Virus record (IMG/VR): IMGVR_UViG_3300046468_002660
DNA from: a virus
Strand: one strand, 5' to 3'
Length of the DNA: 64,000 nucleotides
Shown: piece by piece, positions 38,864-63,700 of the stretch
How the letters are laid out: each line of letters starts with the position of its first letter
Numbering within the stretch: position 1 is the stretch's first letter
Program-made: the position numbers and the translations under genes
Notes under the pieces: generated by a model
What the model saw: only the letters and a program-made list of their open reading frames with translations
Database searches by the model: none
Told to the model about the DNA's origin: nothing

Positions 38864-40725
38864 CTTGGGAAAAAGGAAAACAAAAAAGACGAAGTACTAG
38901 TAAAGATATAAACGAAAGAATATCTAAGTTAGAAGGCTTCTTAGAAGAAAGAGAATCGAAAATTTTATTATATGAATTTTTACGAGAGAATGTTACTTTT
39001 AGTACAAACTTAATTGCTGGGGTAGATTTATTCCCTTTTCAACATATGGCTATTAAATCGATGTTTGAAAGCGATTATTTTTTGGGAATATGGTCTCGTG
39101 GTATGTCAAAATCTTGGACCACAGGAATCTTTGCATTTATGGACGCCATCATGAACCAAGGTGTGGAAATAGGTATTCTATCAAAATCTTTTCGACAAGC
39201 TAAAATGATTTTCAAAAAAATTGAAGATATAGCAGCTAAACCAGAAGCGAAATACTTATCTCAATGCATTACAAGGGTATCTAAGCAAAATGACGAATGG
39301 GTCATGGAAATTGGAAGTAGCTCAATTAGGGCACTGCCTTTAGGCGACGGTTCAAAACTTCGGGGTTTTAGGTTTCATAGAATTATTATTGACGAGATGC
39401 TACTTATGCCAGAAAGGATTTATAATGAGGTTATTGTTCCCTTTCTATCTGTAGTGCAAAACCCAAAAGAAAGGGAAGATTTACATAATCTTGAAACCCA
39501 GTTAATTAAACAGGGCAAAATGAAAGAAGAAGACCGTTACGTTTGGCCAAACAATAAATTAATAATGTTGTCCTCTGCAAGTTACAAATTTGAATACTTG
39601 TATAAACTTTACGAAAACTTCGAAACCCTTATTAATAACGAAGGGAAGTCAAACACAAATGCATCTAGAGCTATAATGCATTTCTCATACGATTGCGCTC
39701 CAAAGCAATTGTATGACCAAAACCTTGTAGAACAGGCAAAGTCAACCATGAGTCAAAGCCAGTACGATAGAGAGTTTGGTGCAATATTTACAGATGACAG
39801 TTCTGGTTACTTTAAGATTTCAAAAATGCAAGAATGTACCGTCGAAGAAGGTGTGAGCCCTTGCGTTGAAGTGAAAGGAGAAGTGGGAGCTGAGTACATG
39901 CTTTCGTTTGACCCAAGTTGGGCTGAAAGTGAAAGTTCTGATGATTTTGCTATGCAAATATTTAAATTAAATAAAGAGACTAAGCAAAGTACGCTTGTTC
40001 ACGTATATGCAATGGCAGGTCAAAACCTTAAAAATCATATTAATTATTTTCATTATTTATTAACTAATTTTAATATTGTATCAATGGTAGGAGATTATAA
40101 TGGAGGAGTACAATTTATAAATGCTGTTAAAGAAAGTTCATTATTTAAAGTTGCTAAAATACAAATTAATGTACTCGAAACTGAATTTGATGATTTAGAG
40201 AATTATCATAAATCTTTAAGATCAGCAAAAAGAGAGATGAACGCTGAAGGTATTCCTTGTGTGCTTAGAAAACCAACTTCAGACTGGATCAGAAGAGCTA
40301 ATGAATTGTTGCAAGCTAACTTTGATCATAAAAGAATATGGTTTGCCTCAAGAGCTATAGACGAATCATTTCAAAGCCAAAGAAAAAAGAAAATACCTAT
40401 TCAAAAATTAAATTTTTTAAATTTTGCTGATGATGAAGAAAAACAAAGTGACGGTGCGAAAATGATAGACTTTGTGGAGCATCAACATGATATGATGGAA
40501 TATACAAAAGGTCAATGCGCATTAATTGAAGTTAAATCTTCACCTCAAGGAACACAAACTTTTGACTTGCCTTTAAATTTAAAAAAGACGACTGGGCCCA
40601 GTAAAGCCAGAAAAGACTGCTATTCAGCACTAGTGCTTGGAAGCTGGATGATGAAAATTCATAACGACATTTACAACTTTAAGGATGAAACTGTTAATTC
40701 TTTTGTGCCAATGTTTATAAAGTAA
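38860..40725 (+). CDS. terL: Terminase large subunit
   Basis: LFPFQ, SRGMSKS, LRGFRFHRIIIDE, LSSA, RNase H-like FDPS...DD, KDCYSA; precedes portal. Confidence 0.85.
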   Translation: MTWEKGKQKRRSTSKDINERISKLEGFLEERESKILLYEFLRENVTFSTNLIAGVDLFPFQHMAIKSMFESDYFLGIWSRGMSKSWTTGIFAFMDAIMNQGVEIGILSKSFRQAKMIFKKIEDIAAKPEAKYLSQCITRVSKQNDEWVMEIGSSSIRALPLGDGSKLRGFRFHRIIIDEMLLMPERIYNEVIVPFLSVVQNPKEREDLHNLETQLIKQGKMKEEDRYVWPNNKLIMLSSASYKFEYLYKLYENFETLINNEGKSNTNASRAIMHFSYDCAPKQLYDQNLVEQAKSTMSQSQYDREFGAIFTDDSSGYFKISKMQECTVEEGVSPCVEVKGEVGAEYMLSFDPSWAESESSDDFAMQIFKLNKETKQSTLVHVYAMAGQNLKNHINYFHYLLTNFNIVSMVGDYNGGVQFINAVKESSLFKVAKIQINVLETEFDDLENYHKSLRSAKREMNAEGIPCVLRKPTSDWIRRANELLQANFDHKRIWFASRAIDESFQSQRKKKIPIQKLNFLNFADDEEKQSDGAKMIDFVEHQHDMMEYTKGQCALIEVKSSPQGTQTFDLPLNLKKTTGPSKARKDCYSALVLGSWMMKIHNDIYNFKDETVNSFVPMFIK

Positions 40726-42859: not shown

Positions 42860-43930
42860 ATGTATATGAAACATACAATCAATGGAACAGTAAATAGTAA
42901 AAAAATTATTGTAACTGGAGTCACTGGGCAAGATGGCAGCCATATGGTAGATTATCTTTTAAAAAATGTTGACTGTAAAATTTTTGGATCATTGAGAAGG
43001 ATAAGTGTGCCTAATTATAAGCACATTAAACATTTAAAAAATGAATCAAGATTTGAATCTATAAAATTAGATTTAACTGATTCGTACAGTATTCAAAATG
43101 CAATCACCAACATTCAACCAGATTATTTTATAAATTTTGGAGCACAGTCATTTGTGCAATCAAGCTGGGATTTTCCAGAGCAAACTTTTCAAACAGATGC
43201 TACTGCTATGATACATATATTAGAAGCAATTAGAAAGTTCGCTCCGAAGTGTCATTTTTATAACGCAGGGTCTTCTGAAGAATTTGGTGATGTAGTTTAT
43301 TCTCCACAAGACGAAAAGCATCCTTTAAGACCTCAGTCTCCGTATGGAGCAGCTAAAGCCGCAGCTAGACACCTCGTGAGAGTATATAAAGAATCTTATG
43401 ACTTGTACGCTATTCAAGGTTGGTTGTTTAATCACGAAGGAACTAGAAGAGGGTATGAATTTGTTACCAGAAAAATCAGTAATAGCATTGCAAAAATCAA
43501 AAAATGCATAGAAAAAAATGAAGATTTTAAACCTTTAAAATTAGGTAATCTTGACGCTAAAAGAGATTGGACAGATGCTGAAGATTTCATGGATGGCGTG
43601 TGGAAAATGTTAAACCAAGAAACACTAGATCCTAAAAATTATGTTCTAGCGAGTGGAGAAATGTATACGATTAGAGAATTCCTACAAGAAACTTTAAAAC
43701 ATGCAGGAATAAAATTTGTGGTATCTGGAGAAAAAGAAGATGAAAAATATCTAACTGAAGATGGAAAAACCTTAGTGATTATAGATCCGTCTCACTACAG
43801 ACATGCAGAGGTTAAGGAATTGCTTGGAGATTGCTCAAGAGCTAAAAAAGAATTGGGCTGGAAACCTAAAAACAGTTTTATTCAATTAGTGCATAAAATG
43901 TACGATAATGATTACGCAGAAAGTTCTTAA
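42860..43930 (+). CDS. gmd: GDP-mannose 4,6-dehydratase
   Basis: TGVTGQDGS, AQSFV, SSEEFG, SPYGAAK, LFNHE, FVTRKI, LGNLDAKRDW. Confidence 0.92.
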   Translation: MYMKHTINGTVNSKKIIVTGVTGQDGSHMVDYLLKNVDCKIFGSLRRISVPNYKHIKHLKNESRFESIKLDLTDSYSIQNAITNIQPDYFINFGAQSFVQSSWDFPEQTFQTDATAMIHILEAIRKFAPKCHFYNAGSSEEFGDVVYSPQDEKHPLRPQSPYGAAKAAARHLVRVYKESYDLYAIQGWLFNHEGTRRGYEFVTRKISNSIAKIKKCIEKNEDFKPLKLGNLDAKRDWTDAEDFMDGVWKMLNQETLDPKNYVLASGEMYTIREFLQETLKHAGIKFVVSGEKEDEKYLTEDGKTLVIIDPSHYRHAEVKELLGDCSRAKKELGWKPKNSFIQLVHKMYDNDYAESS

Positions 43931-44684: not shown

Positions 44685-46274
44685 ATGAATTTTAAATACA
44701 AAACAGCTTTTTCTCATGAGATCAAAGCTTCTGATAAAGATGTTAAGAATAATAAATTCACATCAGAAGCTTCTTTAGAACAATTAAAGAGTTTAGTTCC
44801 TGAAGATATTGATTTCAAAAGAAATATCGATCTTATAGGTTTAGCTTTTAATGCAGCAGTTATTAATCAATTTAATAAAAATGATGATGGAATTGATACA
44901 GCTACAGCAATGGCTATAAAAGATTATTTTGTTCATAAACCTACTAATATAGAACATAATAAAAAGAAAATTGTCGGACATATTGTTTCTTCAGCTTTTT
45001 CAAGATCTTATAACGATGAAATTTTTGAAATTAACAATCAAGATTCTAAAGAGCCTTTTAATTTAGCTCTGGGTGCAGTGATATATTCTAATGCTAATCA
45101 AGAGTTTGCAGATCTTGCTCTACGCTCTGTTAATCCGAATGATGAATTATATCAGTCAGTATCTGCAAGCTGGGAACTCGGATTTAATGATTATGTTATT
45201 GCTGCTGGTAGTCGAAAACTAAGTGAAGCTGAAATTATTACAAATGTAAAACATATAAGTGAATTGTCAGAATATTTAAAAGCTTTTGACGGTGAAGGGG
45301 AAATGAAAGATGGTACTCCTATTTACAGATTAGTTGTTGGAGAAGTTTATCCGCTAGGAATTGGATTCACAGCAAATCCTGCAGCTGAAGTTCAAGGTAT
45401 TTATATACATAAGGATAAAAAAAAAGAGATTGAACTAGACGACCAAGAAGCTCAAGAAATTGAGCGCATAGAAGTACACAATAAAAACTTTTTTGAAAAA
45501 AGTGAAAAAAATATTTCACAAAATGAAAATTTACATGTAATAGAATCTATAAACAAAATTTCTACTATGGAAAAAAAAGAATTACTAGAAGACTTTAAAG
45601 CCATTCTCGAAGAAAAAATGCCTGGTCATGATTTCTCTCAGGAAACTGTGGCTAATGTTGGCCGCGTAATTGGAGATGCTATCAAATCCAAAAGCGAACA
45701 ATATGAAAAGGAACTTCGTGCTCTTGAAGAGCATAAGTTAGAATTTGAAAAGTCTGAACAAGCATTGAAAGAAGATATTGAAGATCTTCGTTCAAAACTC
45801 GGTTCAGCTGAAGAACAAGTTTCTAAACTTAACGAAGAAATCGAAGCTCGTAAAAGCGAAGAAGCTTTTAACGCAAGAATGGACGAAATTGATGCGACCT
45901 ATGAATTGAGCGATGAAGATCGCAAGGTTCTTGTTGCTGAAATTCAATCTGTTGGATTAGAAGATTCTGATTTTGAAGAATACAAATCCAAGCTTGCTGT
46001 AATGTGGGCTCATAAAAACAAAGAACATATCGCAGAGCAAGAAAAGCTTTTCAACGAAAAACTTGAAGCTGAAATTCAAAAACGTTTGAATTCAGAAAAA
46101 GTTGAAGTTGTCGAAGCTAAAGAAGAAGATTCTGTCGAAGAAGTTCTTGAGAATGCAGTTGCTGAAGAAGAAATTGTTGCTAATAACAATGTCGATACAG
46201 CCACTGAAGAAAAATCTTTAAAGGAAAAGTTTCAACAAGCTTTTGCTAGAGAGAATATATCAATCAAAATTTAA
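44685..46274 (+). CDS. Prohead protease-scaffold fusion
   Basis: N-terminal NKNDD, NIEH...VGH, SWE, GFTANPA; acidic coiled-coil C-terminal half; upstream of capsid genes. Confidence 0.7.
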   Translation: MNFKYKTAFSHEIKASDKDVKNNKFTSEASLEQLKSLVPEDIDFKRNIDLIGLAFNAAVINQFNKNDDGIDTATAMAIKDYFVHKPTNIEHNKKKIVGHIVSSAFSRSYNDEIFEINNQDSKEPFNLALGAVIYSNANQEFADLALRSVNPNDELYQSVSASWELGFNDYVIAAGSRKLSEAEIITNVKHISELSEYLKAFDGEGEMKDGTPIYRLVVGEVYPLGIGFTANPAAEVQGIYIHKDKKKEIELDDQEAQEIERIEVHNKNFFEKSEKNISQNENLHVIESINKISTMEKKELLEDFKAILEEKMPGHDFSQETVANVGRVIGDAIKSKSEQYEKELRALEEHKLEFEKSEQALKEDIEDLRSKLGSAEEQVSKLNEEIEARKSEEAFNARMDEIDATYELSDEDRKVLVAEIQSVGLEDSDFEEYKSKLAVMWAHKNKEHIAEQEKLFNEKLEAEIQKRLNSEKVEVVEAKEEDSVEEVLENAVAEEEIVANNNVDTATEEKSLKEKFQQAFARENISIKI

Positions 46275-46286
46275 CAAATATTAAAA

Positions 46287-46955
46287 ATGCAAAAATTATT
46301 ACCATTTAGACAATATGACGAACAAGACGTACTTGGAATCTTTTCTTTAGATGTATCATCTGAAAAAGTTACTAAGTATGTAGATTTAGCACCCGACAAT
46401 GTAAATTTTGACGGTGGAGCTAATTGGAGTGGAACCCTTGTAAAAGCTACAGCTGGAAACGAGTTGGGTAAAGACGAACCTTTAAGAACAAACGATGCTT
46501 ATCTTGGAGCAATTGGAAGCGGAGATCAAGGGTTTGCTATGCAACAAGGAAGTTTTTATCCTCAAGCCCCTTTGAAAGTAGAGGCTGTTGCAAGTGATCA
46601 AGATGAAAACGCTTTAGGTTTAACTCTTCGCCCAACAATGGCATGGGACGAAAATATGGAAAAGCTTCTTTACTATCCTGTAAAGAAAGATGAGTTTCAA
46701 GCTGTTCTTCCTGGGGAAACTGTTCCTGTTGTTACTCGCGGATTTTTTACAGTAAAATACGGCGGCACAACTACAGGAGTAACTATAGCAGGAACACCTG
46801 CAGTTGGCAATGTATTGAAAGCAACAGCTGTTGCTGGAGAATTGGGAGTAGCAACAAGTGCTCAGAAGGGCATCGCAAGAGTCCTTGCTATAGGAAAAAA
46901 TGGAGGAGACAATGTAGCACTAATTCAATTTGGAATTTCTGCTGTCGCTTCCTAA
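46287..46955 (+). CDS. Head decoration/cement-like protein
   Basis: G/A/V-rich, between scaffold and capsid. Confidence 0.55.
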   Translation: MQKLLPFRQYDEQDVLGIFSLDVSSEKVTKYVDLAPDNVNFDGGANWSGTLVKATAGNELGKDEPLRTNDAYLGAIGSGDQGFAMQQGSFYPQAPLKVEAVASDQDENALGLTLRPTMAWDENMEKLLYYPVKKDEFQAVLPGETVPVVTRGFFTVKYGGTTTGVTIAGTPAVGNVLKATAVAGELGVATSAQKGIARVLAIGKNGGDNVALIQFGISAVAS

Positions 46956-46973
46956 AAGAAAGGAAAATTTAAT

Positions 46974-48155
46974 ATGAATATTACTTTAAAACGTACACAA
47001 GAACAAGTCGAGCTTATTAAAGCTATGGCTTCTAAGAATCGAAACGTTGCATATGAAGCTCAAGCTGCAGCTGCTGAATTTATTGGCCCTGTTTTGGCAG
47101 AAGTCATTAATAACGCTCCTGCTTTGAGCAATATGTTTAACACCTTTTCTTTTAATGATGATGACAATCCCTCTATTCCATTGGATCTGTATCATGATAT
47201 TACAGATACTGATTATGTAGAGATTTACACTCAAAATGTTCCTGGTGGACTTCCATCCAACCATGTAGCACCTAAGCACAGCGAGCTTAAATTCCAAACT
47301 TACCGTCTTGAAACAGCAGTTGACTTTGATCGTCGATATGCTTCTCGTTCAAGGCTTGATGTTGTAAGTAAAACATTTACTCGTATCGCTCAAGAATTGC
47401 TTCAAAAACAAGAAGTTACTTCTGGTAACTTGGTAATGTCTGTTTTGGCAAAAGCTTTGACAAACGGCAAAAAACATGTTATTAAATCTCATACAGAGAA
47501 TCAATTCTTACTTGCTGATGTTAATAAACTTATCACTCACGCTAAAAGAATTAATACAGCATGGAATCAAGGAACACCAATCAATGCAACTCGCGGAGTT
47601 ACTGATTTGATTGTTTCTCCTGAAATTATGGGTGAAATTCGCGCTATGGCTTACAACCCCATCAATACTCGTACACACGGTTCTTCTTCTGTAACTGGTT
47701 CAGTTGGAGGTAGCGGATCTTCTGCTGGCGATGCTGTTACTGGTACAGTAGATAATCCTGGTGGAGTTATTGCAGCTACTGATAGCATGCGTGAAGCATT
47801 GTACAACAACGCTGGAACTTCTGAGCTTTATGGTATCTCCATCACTGAACTCAACGAGTTTGGTATTAGCCAAAGATTTAACACAATCTTTGATACTGCT
47901 GATGGTGATGCTGGTAGTTTTGGACAAGCTGGCACTCATTTTAATACTGCCGATGATGAAATTATCCTTGGCTTGGATCGCACTCGTGAATCCATGATGA
48001 GAGCTATTGCTGTTGATTCTGAAACTGGAGCAGAGTTGAGACTTGCTGCTGATGATCAGTATACTGTTCGTCAACAAAAGATCGGATACTATGGTTCAAT
48101 TGAAGAAGGTCGTATGATCCTCGACAGTCGTGCCCTCACAGGTATTGTTGTGTAA
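46974..48155 (+). CDS. Major capsid protein
   Basis: 393 aa, AAGGA SD, codon usage typical of high expression, strong terminator after. Confidence 0.75.
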   Translation: MNITLKRTQEQVELIKAMASKNRNVAYEAQAAAAEFIGPVLAEVINNAPALSNMFNTFSFNDDDNPSIPLDLYHDITDTDYVEIYTQNVPGGLPSNHVAPKHSELKFQTYRLETAVDFDRRYASRSRLDVVSKTFTRIAQELLQKQEVTSGNLVMSVLAKALTNGKKHVIKSHTENQFLLADVNKLITHAKRINTAWNQGTPINATRGVTDLIVSPEIMGEIRAMAYNPINTRTHGSSSVTGSVGGSGSSAGDAVTGTVDNPGGVIAATDSMREALYNNAGTSELYGISITELNEFGISQRFNTIFDTADGDAGSFGQAGTHFNTADDEIILGLDRTRESMMRAIAVDSETGAELRLAADDQYTVRQQKIGYYGSIEEGRMILDSRALTGIVV

Positions 48156-48183
48156 GACACTTCTTAACACATATTAAGAGTTT

Positions 48184-48213
48184 AAAAAAATCCACCTACG
48201 GGTGGATTTTTTT
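48184..48213 (+). terminator. Intrinsic (bidirectional) terminator
   Basis: A7-TCCACC-TACG-GGTGGA-T7. Confidence 0.85.
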
Positions 48214-48254
48214 ATTCCCAGATTTAACATAAAAGTGTAACCTAAAATAATATT

Positions 48255-48668
48255 ATGGCACAAAGCAAAGCAAAAAAAACGAAGAAAAAAGCTCAAGAAA
48301 GCGTTTCAAGGACGAATAAAGAGATGATGTATACAGATGGTAAAGCTACAATAGCAAGCGAAGAAAAAAAACTAACTGATTTAGAGTCAATATTGAACCC
48401 TGGGATTTTAACAAATCATTTTCAAGCGAAAACAGGAGAAGAATTTGATAGTAAAATGGCTGATATGTCCATGCCTGAGCTGCAATCCTTGGCTGTAAAA
48501 GTCGGAGTATTTCCTTCTGGAAATAGAACAACTTTAAAAAATAAATTAAAGAAAGAATTCAATAATGTTGTGTTTACAGGAAAAGGAAAAGTCATGCAAT
48601 CAGAAAGACCAATGTTTGATTTTGACTCTTTAACTGCAGAGCAAAAAAAATTATTTAAAGAAATTTAA
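48255..48668 (+). CDS. Hypothetical virion-cluster protein
   Basis: GTGTAA motif upstream. Confidence 0.6.
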   Translation: MAQSKAKKTKKKAQESVSRTNKEMMYTDGKATIASEEKKLTDLESILNPGILTNHFQAKTGEEFDSKMADMSMPELQSLAVKVGVFPSGNRTTLKNKLKKEFNNVVFTGKGKVMQSERPMFDFDSLTAEQKKLFKEI

Positions 48669-48669
48669 C

Positions 48670-49209
48670 ATGGGGCAACTGGATGATATTGCTGGAGATA
48701 TATATGATACTGAATTTTTTGATGAAGTAGCGACTCCAGGAGAAATAGCTGCAGCAAAAGCTAGGATAGCTGCTTGGCTAGAAACCAATATTGGACAGTT
48801 AAATGTATTAATAAATTCTTCTTATAGAGTAGATGCAAGCAATGATACTTGCCCTGTTTTGCAGGATGAAGAAATTGCTATATTTATACAGTTATACCTT
48901 AAGTATTACTACAAAAGACAAAGTCAATCTATTCTTAAGAATTTAACATCAACCACAGTAATTTCTGGAACTCCAATTTATACAATGTCAGATTGGACAG
49001 AGTTGCGAGAAGGAGATTCTCAAATTAAAAGAGTCTCGCAAAACGCTTCTCCGCAACAAAAAGTTCAAATAGCTCAAGCTTATAAAGGATTCTCTTCTGA
49101 GGCTGATGTAAAATTAAGTGAATTAATTCATGCCTATAATATGTATAAATCTGTGCCAAGGCAAGTTGTATCAGATGGTATAATAAATACTCCTCCAACA
49201 CCTACTTAA
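48670..49209 (+). CDS. Putative head-tail adaptor
   Basis: Position and size. Confidence 0.45.
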   Translation: MGQLDDIAGDIYDTEFFDEVATPGEIAAAKARIAAWLETNIGQLNVLINSSYRVDASNDTCPVLQDEEIAIFIQLYLKYYYKRQSQSILKNLTSTTVISGTPIYTMSDWTELREGDSQIKRVSQNASPQQKVQIAQAYKGFSSEADVKLSELIHAYNMYKSVPRQVVSDGIINTPPTPT

Positions 49210-49210
49210 A

Positions 49211-49657
49211 ATGGCAGATTTAATTCCAGGGTCTGACAAAATAGCTTTTGATGCTATTTTTGACGATATTCACGATACTTTTGCGAGAGAAATTACAATT
49301 TTTAAAAAAGAGAAAAAAGTATTTGTAGCTACGAATCCCACTTATAACGCACTGTACTCTAGACTTAAAAACGCAAAAGGTTCAGAAAAAACAGTTGAAG
49401 CTATAACAGTGAAAGCACGAGTTGCATACGCTGGGAATTTTGAATTCTTGAGAGCCAATTCAGAAAACGAAATTATGGGAATAGATATCCCAGCAGATCA
49501 TGTAAGAATTAAAATTGATGCAGCTGGATACAATTTAATCAAGCAAGCTACTGATATAGAAATTGACGGAGAATTATTTAACATCACATCTGACGCTGCA
49601 AAATCTGGATTGTTTAAAGTTAATTACTACAATTTATTGCTAAAAAGAAGGAGTTAA
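49211..49657 (+). CDS. Putative head-closure protein
   Basis: Position; IEIDGELFNI beta pattern. Confidence 0.45.
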   Translation: MADLIPGSDKIAFDAIFDDIHDTFAREITIFKKEKKVFVATNPTYNALYSRLKNAKGSEKTVEAITVKARVAYAGNFEFLRANSENEIMGIDIPADHVRIKIDAAGYNLIKQATDIEIDGELFNITSDAAKSGLFKVNYYNLLLKRRS

Positions 49658-49658
49658 T

Positions 49659-50264
49659 ATGCCTGTAAGAATAAACATGAGAGCTTTAAAAGCGATAGAA
49701 AACTCTCAAGTTGCTCCAATTGTAAATAAGCAAGTTGAAATGAGTATAATAAAATCGGCAAAATTAGCTCATCAAAAAATGTTAAAAGCATTTGATAATC
49801 ACCCAGTAACAAAAGAAATTATGTCAGGGCCTGAAGGGTATAATCAAAGCGGTACATTAGGAGGATATGGTAATTTATTTTCTTTTATTGGTTTCGAAGA
49901 AGGTATGGATCCTATAGCTCCAATTAGATATATACTACAAAAAAGTTTAAATGTTAAAGCTACACCTTCAAACCATAAATCAATGATCATGAATTTTTTA
50001 GTAGAGCTACCCTCTAAAGAAAGTTTGTTTGAAGCCTCTCCAATGCCGTGGGCTAGTGGTAGAAGTTGGTTGGAGGGAATCGAGCGGGGAATATCTGGAC
50101 TTGGAAATTATCTTAACACAATGTCTTTTTCAAGTAGGTCTGGAGAAGGTGTGCAAACAAAAAATAAAATTCGAAGCGGTGGATTCAGGAATACTCAGTA
50201 TTTGAGTAGTTTATTAAACAATCTAGCAATAGATGTTAGAAAAGGAGTGTCGTTTAAAAAATGA
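49659..50264 (+). CDS. Putative neck/tail-completion protein
   Basis: Position. Confidence 0.4.
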   Translation: MPVRINMRALKAIENSQVAPIVNKQVEMSIIKSAKLAHQKMLKAFDNHPVTKEIMSGPEGYNQSGTLGGYGNLFSFIGFEEGMDPIAPIRYILQKSLNVKATPSNHKSMIMNFLVELPSKESLFEASPMPWASGRSWLEGIERGISGLGNYLNTMSFSSRSGEGVQTKNKIRSGGFRNTQYLSSLLNNLAIDVRKGVSFKK

Positions 50265-51136
50265 ATGTTGGGTTTGATCATGAGTTACTGTCTAGTTTTT
50301 ATTTATGGTGTGATGATAGGTTAACTTATTTTGCTGAAGCTTATCAGCCAATAGAAACTCATACTTTTGAATTTGTTGATTCAATTGATGTTCCAACAAA
50401 TTACCACGCGTATTACAGCCCATACAGACAATTCGTATGGTCATCTGATAAATTTTTAGTTGACGATCATGTTGAAATTGGAGGATCTCAAGTTGTTGAT
50501 AAAAATGGGATATATATAGATTATAACAATGGCAGAGTATTGGTTGATACAGCTACACATGGATCAAGTAAAACTTTAAATATTCAGGGGAACTTTGCAT
50601 ATAAAACAGTAAATTTATACATCACCGATGAGACTGAAGAAAATGTTATTTTAAATAGTGATTTTATTATTAGCCCTTTAAATCAAACTTATATGCAAAC
50701 AGCAGGAGGATTCAGTGATCAGATGTATACTGTTCCTGCTATATTTTTAACATTATCAAGTTCAACAAATGAGCCGTTTGCTTTCGGCGGAATGGATTGC
50801 ACAAAAGTAAATGTAAGATCTGTTGTGGTAGCTGATTCAAATTACACATTGGATGGTGTACTTTCTATTTTTAGAGACTCTGCACGAACAAGTTTTAAAT
50901 TAATATCTTTTGAGGATTTTCCGTTTGGAGAATTTCATCATATTAAGTCCCATCCATATAAATATAACTCATTATCTAACTCTTCTTCAGCTCATTGTTT
51001 TGTTGATGAAGTGAGGGTTTCAAAGCTTACGGATCGTTCAAGAGAAAGAATTACAGGGTCAAAAGATTATAAGATTGGTTTTATTGATTTCCAAATATCA
51101 AAACCAAGAACTCCAAGAGAAATTTTTTCTAGATAA
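50261..51136 (+). CDS. Putative tail terminator-like protein
   Basis: Position immediately before tail tube. Confidence 0.4.
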   Translation: MNVGFDHELLSSFYLWCDDRLTYFAEAYQPIETHTFEFVDSIDVPTNYHAYYSPYRQFVWSSDKFLVDDHVEIGGSQVVDKNGIYIDYNNGRVLVDTATHGSSKTLNIQGNFAYKTVNLYITDETEENVILNSDFIISPLNQTYMQTAGGFSDQMYTVPAIFLTLSSSTNEPFAFGGMDCTKVNVRSVVVADSNYTLDGVLSIFRDSARTSFKLISFEDFPFGEFHHIKSHPYKYNSLSNSSSAHCFVDEVRVSKLTDRSRERITGSKDYKIGFIDFQISKPRTPREIFSR

Positions 51137-51199
51137 AATTTCACATTTATCCTTTTTTTCTGTAATACTAGATACTAACAATTTTACACAAAAAATATT

Positions 51200-52444
51200 A
51201 TGGCAACAGATAGAATTATTTACCAAAGTGAATCTTTGTTTGTCAGCGACATTAAAAAAAGTGGTGGAAACATTACTGACGCTGATATTTCAGAGGTTAA
51301 TCGTGTTCAGGATATGAGTTATAACCTTGAGGTTTCTCGTACTGACATTAATGAGTTTGGTCAACTTGCAGCTCTTTCGAGAGAGGTAACTGAACCCCCC
51401 ACAGTGTCTTTAGATTTTTCTTACTTACTTACGGATGGCACTCAGGAAGAAAAATTGGGCTTTACTTTAAACAGTGCTGATTCATTACCTAAGAGTAGTG
51501 CAGACTCAATGACAAAAACTATCCTCGGAGGATCGACTGAAGAAAAAAATTATTACATATTAACCGTACCCGAAGGAGAAGATGTTCATGGCAATACTCC
51601 ACTCAACGCCGCTGATCATGGAGTGATTGGGGTCGGAAACGGATTTGTCACAAGTTATGGAATGACCGCTGCAGTAGGAGAACTAGCAACAGCCAGTGTT
51701 TCTGTAGAAGCATCTAATATCATGTTTAAAAATGATATTAGTGGTACTTTTAAAAACCCTTCAATTGACACCAGTTCTTCAACAGGAGATAGATTAAGTA
51801 ATACAGTTAATTTTGCTAGCGTAACCTCTAGTGATGGAAGTATCCAGAACACTACAACTGGTGATGAAATTTATGCTATTCGACCTGGTGATATTCTTAT
51901 TGATTTTGATGCAGTTGGATATTTAGACGGATCAAAAAGCGCAGGTGACTTAAATGTTGGCGGAGCAAGACTTCCTGGTGCTGGAGGTGCATTGGGGGCA
52001 GGTAATACAGCTGTTCACGTTCAAAGTGTATCTCTTGATATTCCTATCGGAAGAAGTCCGCTTAATAGATTGGGTAGTCATTTTGCATTTGCAAGAAAAA
52101 CCGATTTCCCTGTAAACATGACTTTGAGTGTAAGCGCTCTGATGACAGATTTTACAGACGGAAGTCTTGATGGATTGATGTGTGAGGCTGAACAGAAAAG
52201 AGACATAGCCATTGTTCTTAATGATAGATGCGGAAATGCAACCAATATGGTATTCGTTATGAAGAATGCTATACTTGACACACAAGCGTTTTCAGCTTCT
52301 ATTGGAGACAATAAAACTGTTGACTTGACTTTCTCTTCTCAAGTGGGTGGAGCGAATGATAGTGAAAATGGCATCTTCTTGCTTGCTGAGCCAACCAACA
52401 AGATTCCAGAATACGGAGAGACTCCAACTCCTGAATCTTTCTAA
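51200..52444 (+). CDS. Major tail (tube) protein
   Basis: RVQDMSYNLEVSRTDINEFGQ, PTVSLDFSY, beta-rich with an internal duplication; terminator after. Confidence 0.7.
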   Translation: MATDRIIYQSESLFVSDIKKSGGNITDADISEVNRVQDMSYNLEVSRTDINEFGQLAALSREVTEPPTVSLDFSYLLTDGTQEEKLGFTLNSADSLPKSSADSMTKTILGGSTEEKNYYILTVPEGEDVHGNTPLNAADHGVIGVGNGFVTSYGMTAAVGELATASVSVEASNIMFKNDISGTFKNPSIDTSSSTGDRLSNTVNFASVTSSDGSIQNTTTGDEIYAIRPGDILIDFDAVGYLDGSKSAGDLNVGGARLPGAGGALGAGNTAVHVQSVSLDIPIGRSPLNRLGSHFAFARKTDFPVNMTLSVSALMTDFTDGSLDGLMCEAEQKRDIAIVLNDRCGNATNMVFVMKNAILDTQAFSASIGDNKTVDLTFSSQVGGANDSENGIFLLAEPTNKIPEYGETPTPESF

Positions 52445-52463
52445 AGGAAAGAAAAGAGTTTTT

Positions 52464-52497
52464 AAAAAACCTCAGGTTTCACACCTGAGGTTTTTTT
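52464..52497 (+). terminator. Intrinsic terminator overlapping a late promoter
   Basis: AAAAAACCTCAGGT-loop-ACCTGAGGTTTTTT. Confidence 0.85.
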
Positions 52498-52532
52498 GTG
52501 TAAACACACAAAAGGTAAAAGGAAAGTTTATT

Positions 52533-52817
52533 ATGAAAAAAGAAAGAGAACTCTTAGAGTTTCAAGTTTTGCGTACAATCGTAAATTTATACAAAGGTTT
52601 TTTGTTAACAATAGAAGATCTCAATAAAGATCATAAGATGCAGTTTGATAAATTAAAACAGTCAATACCTGAACATGAGGATTTACTGCGACAAGCTGAA
52701 TATTTAGATGAAGCGCAATTAAACTATTTAAGAAAAAAAATTTTAGACAATGGCAATGACGCTAGAAGAGAGCTCATGTCTTATATGGAAAATTTTGATA
52801 TAAACTTTAAAAAATAA
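52533..52817 (+). CDS. Hypothetical protein
   Basis: AAGGA SD, ATG 52533. Confidence 0.6.
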   Translation: MKKERELLEFQVLRTIVNLYKGFLLTIEDLNKDHKMQFDKLKQSIPEHEDLLRQAEYLDEAQLNYLRKKILDNGNDARRELMSYMENFDINFKK

Positions 52818-52853
52818 ATTTAAATATTAATATAATAAGGTAAAAGGTAAAAT

Positions 52854-53708
52854 ATGATAACAGAAAAAAACACACTATATTCTTTCTCTATAAATATCGA
52901 AAAAGAAGTTGAAGAAGAAGTAGAGAAAAAAAGTAGAAAAAAGAACAAAGAAACAGGTAAAACTGAAGTTGTAACAACAACATCAATAAAAACTGTAAAA
53001 AAAGAAGTTCCATACAACGTATATATCAAGAAACCAAATAGAACAGAACTTGAAGATGGAGATATGTTTTATAGCTTGGAGCTAAATAAATACATCAAAA
53101 TGGGCTTGCTAACAAAAGCAATGCTTGCGAAGCAATACGGTAATCAAGGAGGAGTATGGTCTGAGAAAGAGCAAAAAATATATTCTGAATTACTGTATAA
53201 AATGCACAGCAAACAACTTGAAGTTCAACAGTTTTCTTTGCTTGGAGATAATGGAAAGTTATCAGTAAGGCAGAAAGATAAGTTAGAAACTGCAGTAAAG
53301 GAACTTGCTGAAATCAAGAAAGATCTTACAGAATATGAAATGATTCAAAACTCTCTGTTTGATCACACTGCAGATGTAAAAGCTAGGAATAGAGCTATCA
53401 TGTGGTATATTTTGCATATGACTTATTTCACAGAAGGTGATGAAGATGATCCTGTATTTGAAGATTTTTTTGAGGGGTTAGACTTTCAAGAAAAGTATAG
53501 CGACTATCAGGAAAAAGAAGATGATCAAGATCCTTTATATTCGGCAGCTATAGATAAGATTTCTTCAATTATGACGATATGGTATATTAGTGGCACTCAA
53601 GATAAAGAGGGTGTAGAAAGTATATTAAAAGAAATGAAGTCTATTGAGAAAGAAGAAGAAGAAGAAGAAGAAGAAGAATTAGAAGCTGAACCAGCTTCGA
53701 ATGAATGA
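52854..53708 (+). CDS. Putative tail assembly chaperone
   Basis: Between tube and tape measure; poly-Glu tail. Confidence 0.5.
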   Translation: MITEKNTLYSFSINIEKEVEEEVEKKSRKKNKETGKTEVVTTTSIKTVKKEVPYNVYIKKPNRTELEDGDMFYSLELNKYIKMGLLTKAMLAKQYGNQGGVWSEKEQKIYSELLYKMHSKQLEVQQFSLLGDNGKLSVRQKDKLETAVKELAEIKKDLTEYEMIQNSLFDHTADVKARNRAIMWYILHMTYFTEGDEDDPVFEDFFEGLDFQEKYSDYQEKEDDQDPLYSAAIDKISSIMTIWYISGTQDKEGVESILKEMKSIEKEEEEEEEEELEAEPASNE

Positions 53709-54690
53709 AGATAATAAGTTTTTTGAAAATTTATTTTTAGAAATTAAAGATGGATTTTCTGAATTTGATTTTCAAGATCAAGTTCTGTATATTAAACACT
53801 CTGATTTAAATCAGTTAAAAGTTATCAATGATAATTATGAATTCTTTTTGGGTAGAGCTAAAAAAATGGGAATCCCAACTGAAGAGCAGGTTTTGCAGGA
53901 TCTTGAAGAAGGTGATTTATGGACTAAGAAAGATGAAAGTTTATATCAAAGCTTAGAGATCGAAATTAGCAACATCAAAAAAACTTTATCAAACCTTTTT
54001 GTAGAAAAAGAAAAAAACAATCTTAAACAAAGGCTTGATGAAGCTGAAAAAGAATATTTAGAAAAAAAGAATATTAGAAGCGCGTTAATGCTAAATTCTG
54101 CCGAGCAGTATGCAGAGCGCAAGAGTAATGAAAAATTTGTTTTTCATTCTTTGTACAAAGATAAAGAATGTTCTAATTTATTCTATAATAATGATGAGTT
54201 TGATGAAATAGATAATAAAGAGTTAAGCGAGTTGTATGTGATATACAATGATTGTGTTGAAAAATTTTCAAATAAAAATTTAAAACAATTATCTATAAGT
54301 CAAATGTTTACAAGTTTATTAAATATATACTCCAAAGACTTATCTAACTTTTTTAAAAAACACCCATTAGATCTAACTTTCTATCAAATTAATTTATTGA
54401 ACTATGGAAAGCTATTCTTATCAATTTTTCAAAACCATGAAATTCCTGAATCAATATCTAAAGACCCTGATAAAATTTTAGAGCATATAGACAAAAGCAA
54501 AAAAATAAAAAAAGAAAATTTAAAAGAAAAAAGTTCAAAATCGGACGGATTCTCTTACGCAGGAGCCACACAAAAAGAATTGGAAAAAATGGGAGGAAGA
54601 AAAAAGAAAGGAGTTGATATTCATTCAATAGCAGATGAAAAAGGGGGCGAGCTATCAATGGATGATTTTATGAAAATCCATAAAAAATAG
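53701..54690 (+). CDS. Putative tail assembly chaperone
   Basis: Directly upstream of tape measure. Confidence 0.45.
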   Translation: MNEDNKFFENLFLEIKDGFSEFDFQDQVLYIKHSDLNQLKVINDNYEFFLGRAKKMGIPTEEQVLQDLEEGDLWTKKDESLYQSLEIEISNIKKTLSNLFVEKEKNNLKQRLDEAEKEYLEKKNIRSALMLNSAEQYAERKSNEKFVFHSLYKDKECSNLFYNNDEFDEIDNKELSELYVIYNDCVEKFSNKNLKQLSISQMFTSLLNIYSKDLSNFFKKHPLDLTFYQINLLNYGKLFLSIFQNHEIPESISKDPDKILEHIDKSKKIKKENLKEKSSKSDGFSYAGATQKELEKMGGRKKKGVDIHSIADEKGGELSMDDFMKIHKK

Positions 54691-54720: not shown

Positions 54721-57700
54721 ATGAGTGTAGTAAATATACCAACTAGTGCGACTGGCTATCATCAAAGTATTGTTAGTCAAGCAACTACTGCCCAGAAAGC
54801 AGTAAATAGAATGCAGATGTCGCCAAGATTGAATCCTCAAGGAATTGTACAGCCATTAGGAAAAATTACAAATTCAGCGAGTGAATTCCAAAAATCAATG
54901 GATGCATCCGCAGCTCGTGTTTTTGCTTTCGGGGCTGCAGTTGGAGTGATTAATGGAATATCCGATGCGTTTAGAGGAATAATTCAAGCAACAGCTGAAG
55001 TCGAAAAGTCGTTAAAAGATATTCAAGTTGTTATGGAAGCAACGGATAGTGCTATGAAAAAATTTGGAGATGGATTGTTTGACGTAGCAAGAAACACAGC
55101 TACTAGTTTTCAATTAGTAGCAGAATCTGCAACAGAATTAGCTCGTCAAGGTTTGAGTTCAGAAGAAACTCTTGCTAGAGTAAATTCCGCTTTAGTACTG
55201 AATAGACTATCAGGATTAGGGGCCGTAAAATCTACAGAGACTTTAACAGCAGCTATAAACTCATTTAATAAAGAAGGGATTACTCATGAACAAATTGTGA
55301 ATCGAATGGCTAATGTCGATGCTGCTTTTGCTGTATCCTCCGCTGATTTAGCTGAAGCGATATCAAGAGCTGGAGCTGTTGCGCAAGAATCAGGGGTTCA
55401 GTTTAACGAACTAGCTGCGATTGTAACCGCTGTCCAGCAAAGAACCGCCAGGGGTGGTTCTGTCATAGGTAATGGATTTAAAAGTATATTTACGAGAATA
55501 AAAAGAAGTAGAGTTAGAGATGCTCTAGAAGAGATCGGAGTAAGCACCACAAATTTAGATGGTAGTTTTAGATCTTCAATTGATGTATTGAAAGATTACG
55601 CTGGAGTTTATGAAACTTTATCAGATTCTCAAAAGTCATACACTTCAGAACAAATTGCTGGAGTATTTCAAATACAGAATTTGCAAGCGTTAATATCTGA
55701 TTTGAATGATGAGTACTCTGTGTATAATAGAGCTTTAGGTGTCGCTAATAATACAACTAATGAAGCCACGAAAAGAAACGAAGAACTAAATAAAACTTTA
55801 TCAGCTGTTTTTACGCAAACTTCGTTAACCGCAAAAGAATTAGCGGCTTCAATTGGAGAAATAGGTTTTTCGGACAACTTTAAAGAAATTTTAACATTTT
55901 TAAATAATTTAGCGGGAAAGTTAAATGAAATGCTTTCGGAAAATAAAGGGAGTGAATTAGCTAAAGGCTTAGTTCGCGGAATAGGAGCTTTTCTGACGGG
56001 TCCTGGTTTAGTTATTCTTGGCGCGGCTTTTATTAAAATTTTTGCAATGGTAACTAAATTTGCAAAAGAAGCTTTTTCTGATTTGTTAGGGGTTAATAAA
56101 GAAACTAAAAGACAACAAAGTTTGCAAGTTGCTATTAGTCAAATATTATCAACAAACGCTGGCTTGTATCAAAAAATATTTGCAGCGGGAACCAGTACTG
56201 CGAAGCAAGAACAAATGATATTAAACATCATAAAGCAAGAAACCGCAGAAAGACTGAAGCAAGAAGCGGTGATCAAAAGAATAGCCGCTTCAAGTAGCTT
56301 GGTTGGTATCGGAGCATCTGATAAAGGTTTTGTGCCTATGGGGAAAAGAGGGGCTAAGAAAACAGGTAGAAAAACTTTAAATGCAGCGAACGGTTTTCTT
56401 CCATCGTTTAATCAAGAAAAACGAGATATTAATAAAGGGGTTGGCGGAGCAAAGACAAGCGATAAACCAGTTTTATTAAAAAATCATAAGATGGGAAGGG
56501 GGCGCACAGAAAATGTAATCGCTCACACTGGCGAGTGGGTGATTAATAATTTTGGTGGTAGTGGAGGAACTGCAATATTTAACAGGGATATGGCAAAGCA
56601 GTATGGATTACCTAAAGAAGCAAAAAAAATTACCGCATCTGGAGGGCTTATTCCAAATTTTAGCAAGAAAAGAAAAGATACACTTACTAGACCTTCTCTT
56701 GAATTAGGTTGGTCTCCAGGCGGAAGATCCCAAATATCGCAAAAAAGTGATCCTTTTGATAAATTCACAGCGACAGTTAGCAGGATAGAACAAGATAAAA
56801 CAGCAGATGAAACAAAAGGTATCGTAAAAAAAGAATCAGGAAGATTCTTGCAACCTTATTGGGTTAATAAGAACAATAATAAGCAAGTATCATCAGAGTG
56901 GAGTGGTTCAAATTGGGGAGGATCTAGCTACAAAGAGATAAGTAAGTTGCCCGAAGAAGAAAGGCAAAATTTTGTTAAAAAATATAAAATACATTCAGAA
57001 AATTTTAAACAATTCAAAGCTAAAGGTTATGGACAATTAATGAAAACGTTTCCATACAATAATTCAAAAAAATATATTAAAGATATTGTAGATAGCGGGG
57101 GTTATTCTGGAAAGTCTCAACCTCAAGAATTAAAACAAAAATTTGCGGCTTTAAACATGAATTTATCAGGAGCTGCTGGGGAAATTAGTGGAGCAAAATA
57201 TTTAAAAAAAATAGGGTATTCAGATATAAAATTTATTGCTGCTGGAAAATCTTTTGATTACACAGCGAGAAATAAGAAAGGGGATAAAGTTCTCTTCGAA
57301 AACAAAATGAAAGAAATGCAGAATATATCTGCATATCTTAAGAAAGGAGCCACAGAGTATTTAGGTACTATTGCTGCTCCAGGCATTAAAGATAATAAAC
57401 CTCAAAATATAAATTTAGATTTAGTCAAATCTTCTGGGAGTCTATTATTTCCATCAGGGATTAATGCTGTTACTGCAAAAGATTCAAAAGAAACAAATTC
57501 AAAAATTACTCATAAAAATTTAGTGAAAGATTCTAAATTGAGAGAGCGGCTAGATAAAGAATTAGAATTAATATGGAAAAACCCTGACATTAAAGATTCA
57601 GTTAAAAGCGAAGAAACTATAAGAAATTTTTTATTTCATAACGCAGAGTCAAAAATACCAAGATATTCATCAGGATTCGTTCCAAACTTCGGCCCTAGGT

Positions 57701-60700: not shown

Positions 60701-63700
60701 TCCAAATGTTATTAGCTCAAACACAAAGAATGAATTTGGAGGCAAAACAACAAAGAATAGCTAGAGAGCTTTCTAAAAAACAGCAAGGAATTAAATCAAG
60801 AGATTATAAGCCTACTACCATAGATAAAATCTTTAAAACGAAATCAGTAAGATTTGATCAGATTAATTCCATGGGCAATTTAACAAAAAAACAATTTAAG
60901 CTTTATGGTGGCGCAAATAAAGATTTGACTACAGCTTTTCATAAAAAACAAAATCAACTAATGCAGTTATTAACGAATCCCCCTGAAGATTTAGATACAG
61001 GCTTTAGGAATGGGAAAGGTTATTACAGTCCGCAGGTAGAACAGTTAGAAAAAGAATTAAAAGATATCAAAGATCAGAGAAAAAATTTACAAGCAAAATA
61101 TAAAAATATTTCAGATAAATCAATACTAAATAAGTTTCGAAAAAAATTTGGCGGAGAAAGAATTTTTGTATCCCCGAGGATGAGAAGGATGTTAAGCAGA
61201 GCAGCTAAAGGTTTCATACCTAAACCAAGAAAACTTGAAGGTAAAGAGTATTCTCAGTTTAGCACTTCTTTAGCTAGGTATAATTCTAGAGTGTTGAAGG
61301 GTAGTGGAAAAAATAATCAGGGCGACATGCAGTCAAAAATGTTAGAGTCTTTAGATTCTAGAAAAATGTTTAAAATATCAAGAAGAAAAAGAGAAGAAAC
61401 TTTAGGTAATATTAAACAATATCTTAATTCGGATATATTTAAAATGTTGCCACAAGAAATTAAAAATAAAGTAAATAATTATTATAAGAAACAAACTAAA
61501 ACTTCAGGAGATAATGAGTATTTAAGGCATTCAAAAAATCCAAGTTTTACGGGAAGAATCAATAATTACGCGGGCGGATTTGTGTCTAATTTTTCTCAAC
61601 CATTACAGCAGGCAATAGCAAGAGAAGGAGTTGCCTTAAAAGAAAGAGGATTACCAAAATCTTCAATTAAAGTTGAACAATCAAATAAGTTAAAAAACAA
61701 TAAAAATCCAATGGGGTTAGCTGTGACCAATAAATTTGACGAACCAGGAGGTCTTTTTCAAGGAATAAACCGAGCTAATCAAATGGGGATAGATCCAAAG
61801 ACTCATGGCATGTCCGAAGGGTACGTTCCAAATTTCAGGATGATACAAAAACTGATCCCAGGTAAATATTTAAAAGACTTAAATCGTAGAATGCATGCTG
61901 GAAAGTTTTTGAAAAAAAGAGGGGAGCGGGGGAACCCACAAAGTGGCAGTGGGTTTGGTCAAAATCTAGCAATGGGAGGAATGTTTGCAGCTCCTATGGC
62001 TAATGAAATGATGTTCGGGGGGCAAGAAAAACCCTTAGGAGTAGGCGCGTCTGCAGCCAGTGGCGCCATGACAGGAGCAGGCTTTGGAGCTATGTTTGGC
62101 GTTCCAGGAATGATTGCAGGGGCTGGCTTAGGAGCTGCCCATGGAGCAATAAGCTCTTACTCAAAAAAGGATGGAGTGGAGGCTAGCTCAAGAATGATGG
62201 AAGGGTTGAAGAAGTCAAAAGAAAAACTTGATAAAATTATGAATGACGGTTCAGCTATGGAAAGTTTTGGAGCTGGACTAATAGAGTTAAATCAAGCTAT
62301 GGAATCAGGCGACCCTAAAGAAATAGTGGCTGCAAATAAAAAAATGAGAGAGTCTTTGATGAATATAGCTGATCCAAAACTAAGAGATAAGCTTCACGAA
62401 ATTAGAAGTTCTAGCGTATCAGCTTCAGAGAAATTAAAAATGATGGGGGAAGCTATTAATGACGTAAAAGGCAGAGCTGAAGAATTTCAAGGGTTAATGA
62501 ATGCGGGAGGAAAGTTTCAAGAACATACCCAGAAAAATGCAAAATTAGGTGAGGGGGCAATGGGTGCGATTGCTGATACGTTTTCAGCGACTGCTGAAGG
62601 ATTGATGAATTGGGAATGGCAAGGAGGTAATTACGCTAAAAAAAGAAGAGATAGGATGTCAGGAACATTTACTCAAACTGAAGAAGGAGAAGCTGCAGCA
62701 AAAGATACTGCCATGAGTTTTTTAAACCCGATTATGAAAAATAATGCTATAGAAGCTAGGAATCTTGCAAATGAAAGAATTGCTTCTGGAGCAGCTTCAA
62801 GAAGCATAGCTTCTGATAAAAAATTGATTCAAGATTTAATCAATAGCAATAAAAGATACATTGAAATAACGAAAGAGCGAGATGAAATATCACGAGCTCA
62901 AAAAAGTGGAGAAATTGGTGAGAAAGAAGCGTTTCAAGGAATCCAAAATCTAAATTCAGAAAGAATTGATTTGGATAAAAATTATGCAAGAAAAAGAAGA
63001 GATGTTGAAGGCTTTAATGATTCTAGTATAGCAAGCTCCTTGATGGAAATTTATAAAAGTGGAGAATTTAATTTAAGCCAAGAAACTTTAAAAAAGTTTG
63101 AAGATATAGCAGATGGATTAGATGATGTAAGTGGTGAAATTTCCAATTTAAAAGGTTTATCTACAACAGAGATTGAAGTTAAAAGAAGAGAGGGTTTAGT
63201 GACAGACGCCAGTGCGGGTGTGGTTGATAGGGTAGCTTTGCAAGATTTTAATCAACAGGAAGCGGGGTTATTTAGATCGGGTCAATTTGAAGAAACAGAA
63301 GTAATTCAACAGTTAAAATCTAGTGGGCAAAATGCGGTAGCGGTGGAATTAATGAAGCAGCTTGAAAATGAAACTGGTGTACTTGCTCGAGCTTTCGCGA
63401 AACACTACGAAGATGCTAATAAAAAAATCGCTACCAGTTTTTCGGATTTGTCAAGTTCGATGGATGCAGCTAATACAACGTTATCAACCAGAGAAAGATT
63501 AGATCAAAAAACGCTTAGCATGTATCAAAAAATAATTTCCGCTCAGGATAGGATGAATTCTGTCATGGGGAACTACGCAAATGCTGTAAGTAAAGCTTCT
63601 GGGAATTTAGAAAACATGAATGATTTTTTGATGTCTGGAATTGATTATTTGGTAAGTACTGGATCAATGAAACAAAGAGAAGGTATTCAGCAAGCTGCAA

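Follow-up and report, generated by a model that had tools for sequence, protein, structure and literature searches.

What are about 1,840 amino acids (aa) of non-ruler modules doing inside the tape measure protein of a phage, and why is the same short peptide found at their borders? The question is raised by IMG/VR virus record IMGVR_UViG_3300046468_002660, of which one stretch of 64,000 nucleotides (nt), here called the window, was analyzed. A single open reading frame (ORF) starts at 54721 on the plus strand and extends past the window end, so that the window holds its first 3,093 of 3,443 codons (54721..63999). The full form, P0002 (3,443 aa), occurs unchanged on seven contigs from several metagenomes and is therefore not an assembly artefact. 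The central region of this protein consists of ten blocks separated by a conserved peptide, and among relatives the content and order of the blocks vary while the peptide and both flanks are kept. On balance, it is rather probable that a TP901-family tape measure has become a carrier of passenger domains, with a peptide-fenced array that would be injected into the host.

The junction peptide and its protein context

In a Pfam search of the window's tape measure (P0001), PF10145 (PhageMin_Tail, the TP901-type tape measure domain) was the sole family above its cut-off, matching aa 123-314 with an E-value of 2.8e-28 and 99.6 bits against a cut-off of 33.2. By this match the ORF product is a TP901-family tape measure protein, in agreement with the TP901-type core claimed in a preliminary description made from the letters of the window. 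The N-terminal core (54721..56325, + strand; aa 1-535) contains PF10145 and a hydrophobic segment at aa 416-449, and is kept in all relatives. On the other side of the central region, a glycine-zipper hydrophobic segment (61951..62163, +; aa 2411-2481) lies where the same description had placed one, at about 61950-62160; this stretch also gives a weak Pfam match to DUF1269. It is followed by an acidic C-terminal ruler (aa 2501-3443; isoelectric point (pI) 5.0, net charge -31), which starts at 62221 on the plus strand and fills the remainder of the window to 63999.

The peptide has the general form [SA]-x-G-[FYL]-[IV]-P-N-F and is present in 12 copies, all on the plus strand, with their glycine codons starting at the first position given for each. 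Copies 1 (degenerate, GFVPM) and 2 (GFLPSF) occupy 56326..56409, with glycines at 56326 and 56392 and a basic spacer of 16 aa between them. The others are copy 3, GLIPNF (56644..56661); copy 4, GFVPNF (57673..57690); copy 5, GYVPNF (57892..57909); copy 6, GYIPNF (58429..58446); copy 7, GYVPNF (59095..59112); copy 8, GFIPNF (59593..59610); copy 9, GFIPNF (60421..60438); copy 10, GFIPKP (61210..61227); copy 11, GFVSNF (61576..61593); and copy 12, GYVPNF (61819..61836). Copies 10 and 11 are degenerate like copy 1, while seven of the 12 have the strict form G[FY][VI]PNF. The spacings from motif to motif are 22, 84, 343, 73, 179, 222, 166, 276, 263, 122, and 81 aa, and the positions and spacings of the copies in the preliminary description were all reproduced exactly. 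Across 2,000 shuffles, the loose pattern is expected by chance in 0.2 matches per shuffled protein. A logo of 283 distinct copies from relatives gives the consensus N-[AF]-[SA]-x-G-[FLY]-[IV]-P-N-F-[AS].

The copies are alike as peptides and differ as DNA. Identity between motif codons is 0.88 at positions 1 and 2 and 0.50 at position 3, and the longest exact DNA run shared between copies has a median of 6 nt and a maximum of 14 nt. This pattern, which bears out the claim that conservation lies at the protein level with differing codons, argues for selection of the motif as a protein sequence. No strict motif was found outside the tape measure gene in six frames of the 64-kb window and 10 kb downstream, and a literature search found neither a paper describing the motif nor any description of such a peptide-fenced tape measure system. 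The relation of the motif to inteins was also considered. Inteins end in an asparagine that is followed by Cys, Ser, or Thr, and they require an N-terminal nucleophile. In the junction peptide, the residue after the asparagine is Phe, Tyr, or Leu in 277 of the 283 copies, and Cys, Ser, and Thr were never recorded there. The intein reading, which was rejected on these grounds, is further disfavored by the lack of relation between the motif-delimited blocks.

Exchange of modules among relatives

A word-based search returned 40 long relatives of 1,859-5,299 aa, all of which contain PF10145 and carry the motif, in 2-11 copies. They were cut at the motifs and the pieces were clustered at 70% or more reciprocal coverage, which yields an N-terminal core and a C-terminal part that stay constant, the latter preceded by block m2, and a middle in which the presence and order of modules vary. 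For instance, the order is m3 m16 m8 m7 m10 m1 in P0002, m3 m1 m8 m10 m7 in P0005, and m3 m1 m12 m8 m9 m16 in P0008. Profile hidden Markov models of three modules agree with these differing positions, and most complete instances are bounded by motifs at both ends (m7 in 18 of the 19 instances that are complete at both ends). Of the places in the central region where BLAST alignments stop, 42.5% are no more than 5 aa from a motif vs. 5.2% for random positions. Thus the block content and order, which had been expected to vary among homologs while flanks and motif are kept, do so in the 40 long relatives, and the view of the motif as a junction between unrelated blocks is strengthened by breakpoints that coincide with it. 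In a wider set of 196 family proteins, 579 motif-delimited blocks fall into 150 clusters, 93 of them singletons; the blocks have a median length of 165 aa, 95% are at most 438 aa, and protein length correlates with motif number (r = 0.82). Short proteins with similarity to the modules are fragments of tape measures, either split or at contig ends, rather than free-standing homologs.

The comparison with P0003, a close relative, reveals a recent exchange. The two genes are 94% identical in DNA over the first 2,957 nt and 85% identical over the remainder. Block m16 (57691..57891, +; 67 aa) is missing in P0003: collinear DNA ends inside motif copy 4, the left breakpoint, and restarts at motif copy 5, the right breakpoint; both ends of the deletion fall inside motif codons. 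P0003 has a single hybrid motif at this place, with its left flank from copy 4 and its right flank from copy 5. Synonymous divergence (dS) from P0003 is a mosaic that changes module by module, with values of 0.12 for m3, 0.28 for m7, 0.68 for m10, and 1.75 for m8 (57910..58428, +; 173 aa), and it follows that modules are also replaced by divergent alleles; by its dS, against 0.12-0.28 in its neighbors, m8 is such a swapped allele. In a systematic survey of mosaicism in phage proteins, no truly recent mosaicism of tape measures could be confirmed (PMC10684548), and the P0002/P0003 pair is a case of that kind. The ratio of nonsynonymous to synonymous divergence (dN/dS) between the two proteins is 0.05-0.17 in every block, 0.19 in the ruler, and 0.008 in the N-terminal core. 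The core is thus the most extremely constrained part of the protein and the C-terminal ruler the least.

Not every block varies. Relative P0052 (1,362 aa) is cargo-free, with the core, one motif, m2, and the C-terminal part joined directly. Since the motif already flanks m2 in this protein, it is older than the cargo array. Motif splitting recovers block m2 (61594..61818, +; 75 aa; invariant R-E, N-P-x-G, and D-E-P) in 18 long relatives, this protein included, and in 16 of them no other block stands between m2 and the C-terminal part. When protein clusters no longer than 2,000 aa are counted, m2 occurs in at least 366; among the 120 listed, most have PF10145 and no other Pfam family is recorded. 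Block m5 (56410..56643, +; 78 aa), a small element recovered by motif splitting in 13 of the 40 long relatives, is distantly similar to m2. Both m5 and m2 are universal in this tape measure family and are not variable cargo, and the idea that the blocks are variable cargo stands for most of them, with these two excepted.

Several further observations concern m2. Some relatives have two copies, namely P0006 (at 1203-1298 and 2444-2534) and likewise P0009 and P0010. A distant similarity to m2 (E-values of 1e-4 to 1e-5) is seen in two types of small element, m5 and one with PVVDTHP...RDHPEG, and because of this resemblance the small motif-flanked elements may form one old repeat family. One m2-bearing relative, P0161 (1,514 aa), has the Joint Genome Institute (JGI) label "predicted GIY-YIG superfamily endonuclease"; Pfam finds no such domain in it at E-values up to 0.01, and a Pfam search of six further relatives, P0161 among them, returned nothing. 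In a search for the host, m2 turned up only on metagenome-assembled contigs (L006-L012) that had been binned into genomes of six unrelated marine lineages, namely Cellvibrionales, Halobacteriovorax, Marinimicrobia, Flavobacteriaceae, Verrucomicrobiales, and Puniceicoccaceae; one contig, assigned to Cellvibrionales, is 210 kb long. This taxonomic range is too wide for the binned lineages to be the real hosts, and the contigs are probably phage contigs that were mis-binned as bacterial.

The blocks as domains and their possible activities

The central blocks share a basic composition, as the preliminary description had noted of their K/R-rich sequence: lysine and arginine together make up a fraction of 0.15-0.24, the pI is 9.7-10.3, and the net charge is +4 to +30 for each block. 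The net charge comes to about +170 per chain. In contrast to the basic blocks, the core is close to neutral and the ruler acidic, with sharp shifts in composition at the borders of the central region. Besides m5, m16, m8, and m2, the array contains m3 (56662..57672; 337 aa), m7 (58447..59094; 216 aa), m10 (59113..59592; 160 aa), m1 (59611..60420; 270 aa), which is the commonest variable block, b8 (60439..61209; 257 aa), and m11 (61228..61575; 116 aa), all on the plus strand. Block b8 aligns to P0003 and has no counterpart in the 40 long relatives at 70% reciprocal coverage. Two antisense ORFs lie inside the gene, at 56523-56768 (-; 81 aa) and 58839-59297 (-; 152 aa). They are most likely chance ORFs, because the plus-strand frame is under strong purifying selection.

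Their dN/dS values, the fold of m1, and their basic composition identify the blocks as real domains. An AlphaFold2 model of m1 built from 31 sequences has a predicted local distance difference test score (pLDDT) of 83.3 and a predicted template modeling score (pTM) of 0.67, and it shows a globular alpha/beta fold in which several helices accompany four long beta strands. At either end of this model, the motif residues score below 50 and are accordingly taken to be disordered, flexible linkers. The claim that the blocks are globular and unlike helical ruler sequence thus stands for at least one block, m1, which is confidently alpha/beta. The claim that recognisable domains begin and end at the motifs was borne out only in part: residue patterns are found in the blocks, but no database recognises any of them.

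The clearest of these patterns is an ADP-ribosyltransferase-like signature in m7. Y12-R13-G14, S76-x-S78-T79, and E213-x-E215 are invariant in 11 sequences; in a set of 19, there is no exception at S76, T79, E213, or E215, and at least 90% have R13. These residues form the ordered aromatic-Arg, Ser-x-Ser, Glu-x-Glu set of the R-S-E (cholera-toxin-like) ADP-ribosyltransferases, with a distance from serine to glutamate of 135 aa, longer than is usual for that group. Among the language-model neighbors of m7 that have a family, DUF4765/EspN ranks at the top (0.89), followed by DRAT, ADPrib_exo_Tox, NarE, Lart1, and Scabin/Pertussis_S1; the scores of 0.79-0.89 all lie below the 0.9 mark. In VIA-align, three of 18 weak rows for the m7 model are ADP-ribosyltransferase toxins, TccC3 (Z 2.8 and 2.0) and TreX (Z 2.4). 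The 19 m7 sequences gave no Pfam family, even at E-values up to 10. Taken together, m7 is fairly likely to be an ADP-ribosyltransferase.

The other lead concerns nucleases. In m1, E182, D202, [DE]223, K225, and K239 are kept in 31 sequences, G178 and A224 also being invariant, and the model places E182 on a helix (170-188), followed by D202, with [DE]223-A-K225 on a strand (221-225). In m3, E180, D205, and E219-x-K221 (numbered from the motif glycine) are invariant in 15 sequences. Both blocks therefore have the E...D...(D/E)-x-K residue pattern of PD-(D/E)xK nucleases. An hhalign comparison of m1 with m3 gives a weak link at the E...D...[DE]-x-K site (41.5% probability over 21 columns), and the m3 profile matches the resolvase Hjc (1gef) weakly in the Protein Data Bank (PDB) at an E-value of 0.42. 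According to VIA-align with a wide PDB set, the m1 model has no clear structural relative (best Z 4.4); PspGI (Z 3.5 over 119 aa) and Bse634I (Z 3.3 over 108 aa) appear among many unrelated rows of equal Z. Comparison with the ESM atlas gave no clear match (template modeling score up to 0.31), and a language-model search with m1 gave no lead. m1 and m3 may be nucleases of the PD-(D/E)xK type. The enzyme identities of the blocks are leads only: residue signatures and weak ADP-ribosyltransferase and nuclease hints agree with the earlier suggestion that the blocks are enzymes, but Pfam, PHROG, PDB, and fold searches lend it no support.

Proposed carriage and assembly, and the setting of the gene

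On the favored explanation, the ancestral layout is the core with its hydrophobic segment, a motif, m2, a second motif, the glycine-zipper segment, and the acidic ruler. In this phage the motif-flanked site has grown into a series of some eight variable modules of 67-337 aa, all strongly basic and each folding on its own. At the junction peptide, in-frame recombination between related phages inserts and deletes modules, changes their order, and substitutes one for another. From what is known of tape measures, three copies of the protein would lie in the tail tube, with the modules packed in its lumen. At infection the modules would exit together with the tape measure and precede the DNA. The lumen of a tail tube measures about 40 Å across and is mostly negative (PMC8718954), and basic modules could therefore be held in it. 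Once outside, the modules would act in the host envelope or cytoplasm, in the manner of injected polyvalent proteins and T4 Alt, and the carriage of enzymes into the host is probable.

A neutral linker would not stay so constant, and hence the peptide must bind something. The preferred reading, which is held tentatively and by analogy with T5 pb2 and the polyvalent proteins, is that it is a processing site that frees the modules. Asparagine-dependent maturation cleavages occur in the capsids of some animal viruses. It is conceivable, though unlikely, that G-[FY]-[IV]-P-N-F serves generally as a cleavable adaptor for the packing, injection ahead of the DNA, and release of any small basic domain between two copies, and that assembly possibly triggers a cut at its invariant Asn-Phe bond. 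In a large group of uncultured aquatic phages, the tail lumen would then be a delivery channel open to loading and would house a polymorphic effector system, built into the tape measure and comparable to Rhs or type VI secretion system (T6SS) cargo.

Several results weigh against a carrier of freed enzymes. The ten blocks gave no match in Pfam and nothing useful in PHROGs, and sequence-profile searches of the PDB with m7, m1, m3, and m2 found nothing below an E-value of 0.2. A phmmer search with aa 720-1912 against 1.84 billion representatives found only 41 proteins, all of them giant and tape-measure-like or fragments, so the modules are not visibly recruited from known effector pools. The m7 model is poor (pLDDT 58.7), with the E-x-E stretch modeled as a helix; Foldseek found nothing for it, and its best VIA-align row has a Z of only 3.0. 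Foldseek searches of the PDB and BFVD with the m1 model likewise found nothing. Folded domains of 30-38 kDa would be a tight fit in a 40 Å lumen or too large for it, and no protease was recognised near the gene. Lastly, the motif flanks the universal m2 and predates the cargo, and its primary job may for that reason be structural.

A structural role is the second reading of the peptide, nearly as likely as processing. Each copy would be an assembly signal, a docking point for the tail assembly chaperone or for the inside of the tube wall, and would let polymerisation cross the non-helical stretches while the chain stays uncut, which is compatible with cargo. Such docking would explain why the motif is present in cargo-free relatives, where it flanks m2, and it agrees with the restriction of the motif to the tape measure, with its disorder when alone, as in short docking motifs, and with the lack of a recognised protease among 15 neighbors; yet the irregular spacing of 67-343 aa misfits a regular tube lattice, and the upstream proteins (284 and 329 aa) belong to no recognisable chaperone family. 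When m2 and its flanking motifs were modeled as a complex of three copies, to see whether the motif staples the trimer, the score was 0.00, which speaks neither for nor against stapling. The modules themselves could also be structural or nucleic-acid-binding ejection machinery, basic domains that hold or shield the leading DNA end or form a conduit through the envelope. That unrelated modules are all basic (about +170 per chain), that they occur only in tape measures, and that an m1-type domain is kept even in the small relatives P0038, P0047, and P0082 would fit this well. It is nevertheless unlikely, since the high turnover of the modules (150 clusters and 93 singletons in 196 proteins, with reordering and allele swaps) typifies conflict-driven cargo, and their invariant Arg/Ser/Glu and Glu/Asp/Lys sets look catalytic.

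The two remaining alternatives are far less probable. Very long tape measures exist, with relatives here of up to 5,299 aa, and the whole ORF could in principle be an ordinary ruler of a tail of about 500 nm. This is very improbable given the compact alpha/beta domain, containing four long strands, that is confidently predicted for m1, the cargo-free P0052, which shows that the central region is dispensable for the family, and the sharp changes of composition at its borders. As for the repeat being a DNA-level recombination site, shufflon- or cassette-like and read by a site-specific recombinase with the peptide as a by-product, the breakpoints inside motif codons are what it would predict. 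It was rejected as largely refuted, and is the least credible of the alternatives, because third positions are only 50% identical vs. 88% at the first two, the median shared run is 6 nt with a maximum of 14 nt, and relatives so divergent that their synonymous sites are saturated still share the peptide.

The setting of the gene adds little by way of named functions. When 15 neighbors (ten upstream and five downstream) were compared with PHROGs and Pfam, only the large terminase (38860-40725) and a GDP-mannose 4,6-dehydratase (42860-43930, +) were recognised, and neither a protease nor a chaperone was found. The dehydratase is full-length (PF16363, E-value 1e-102) and stands between terminase- and portal-sized genes and unrecognised structural genes, a sugar-metabolism gene inside the phage late block. 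Twelve genes upstream of the tape measure gene (44685-54690, +) reached no curated Pfam cut-off and had no PHROGs match, and the same was true of the five downstream genes (1,087, 552, 851, 98, and 705 aa; L001 20361-30250, +), of which those of 1,087, 552, 851, and 705 aa are on the same strand as the tape measure gene. Nothing in the INPHARED phage records matched at the DNA or the protein level. The surrounding phage is highly divergent, and its entire head and tail module belongs to an undescribed lineage.

The proposed carriage of modules in the tail has parallels in known systems. Like other TP901-1-family tape measures, the protein has an N-terminal PF10145 domain, hydrophobic segments, and, it seems, a late-operon position with large genes of unknown family immediately downstream; it differs in its approximately 1,840 aa of non-ruler modules, which are fenced by a conserved peptide and vary in content between close relatives. 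Cleavage after R1127, which lies between a hydrophobic stretch and an enzyme domain, splits pb2 of phage T5 into pb2* and pb2C (PMC10038345). The proposed likeness to T5 pb2 and lambda gpH is an enzyme domain beside a hydrophobic stretch, freed by cleavage during tail assembly, but these have one fixed domain and one cut site, whereas here there are up to 12 junctions, a variable array, and a hypothetical cleavage. Polyvalent proteins are giant multi-domain proteins with unrelated domains in variable order, as is the case here; their proposed fate is entry into the cell alongside the DNA and processing into separate units (Iyer et al., 2017; PMC5512222), and they carry conflict-type domains that include ADP-ribosyltransferases and nucleases (PMC5512222). 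In contrast, they are head-associated or MuF-linked, with defined Pfam domains and a Zn-peptidase, while here the carrier is the tail ruler; Pfam found none of their signature domains (MuF, Zn-dependent MPTase peptidase, ART-PolyVal, and others) in P0001, and the founding paper on polyvalent proteins never mentions tape measures (PMC5512222). T4 Alt and the T4 internal proteins resemble the array as virion-packed, injected proteins, an ADP-ribosyltransferase among them, with a short peptide signal common to unrelated passengers. They are packed in the head via a capsid-targeting sequence and cut by the prohead protease, whereas the passengers here are fused serially in a tail protein. Lastly, the tape-measure-related effector Sle1 of an actinobacterial contractile injection system (PMC13277306) and the toxin Afp18 in the tube lumen of the antifeeding prophage (AFP; PMC8718954) combine a tape-measure-like scaffold with an exchangeable functional domain inside a tail-like tube; the particles in question are contractile and not phages, have just one functional domain, at the C terminus, and lack a repeated junction peptide.

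If the protein does carry passengers, the tail lumen would join the capsid as a compartment for variable injected phage proteins. The junction peptide offers a sequence rule for finding such passengers in metagenomes, having delimited about 150 block clusters from 196 proteins, none of them in Pfam or PHROGs, and if it is a portable loading or cleavage signal, chosen proteins could be loaded into phage tails or tail-like particles. The family also shows clearly that modules within a tape measure have been exchanged in recent time, and in it the length of the tape measure is not convertible to the length of the tail. With ten blocks in one tape measure, this phage is a rich example from a large, uncultured, aquatic phage group.

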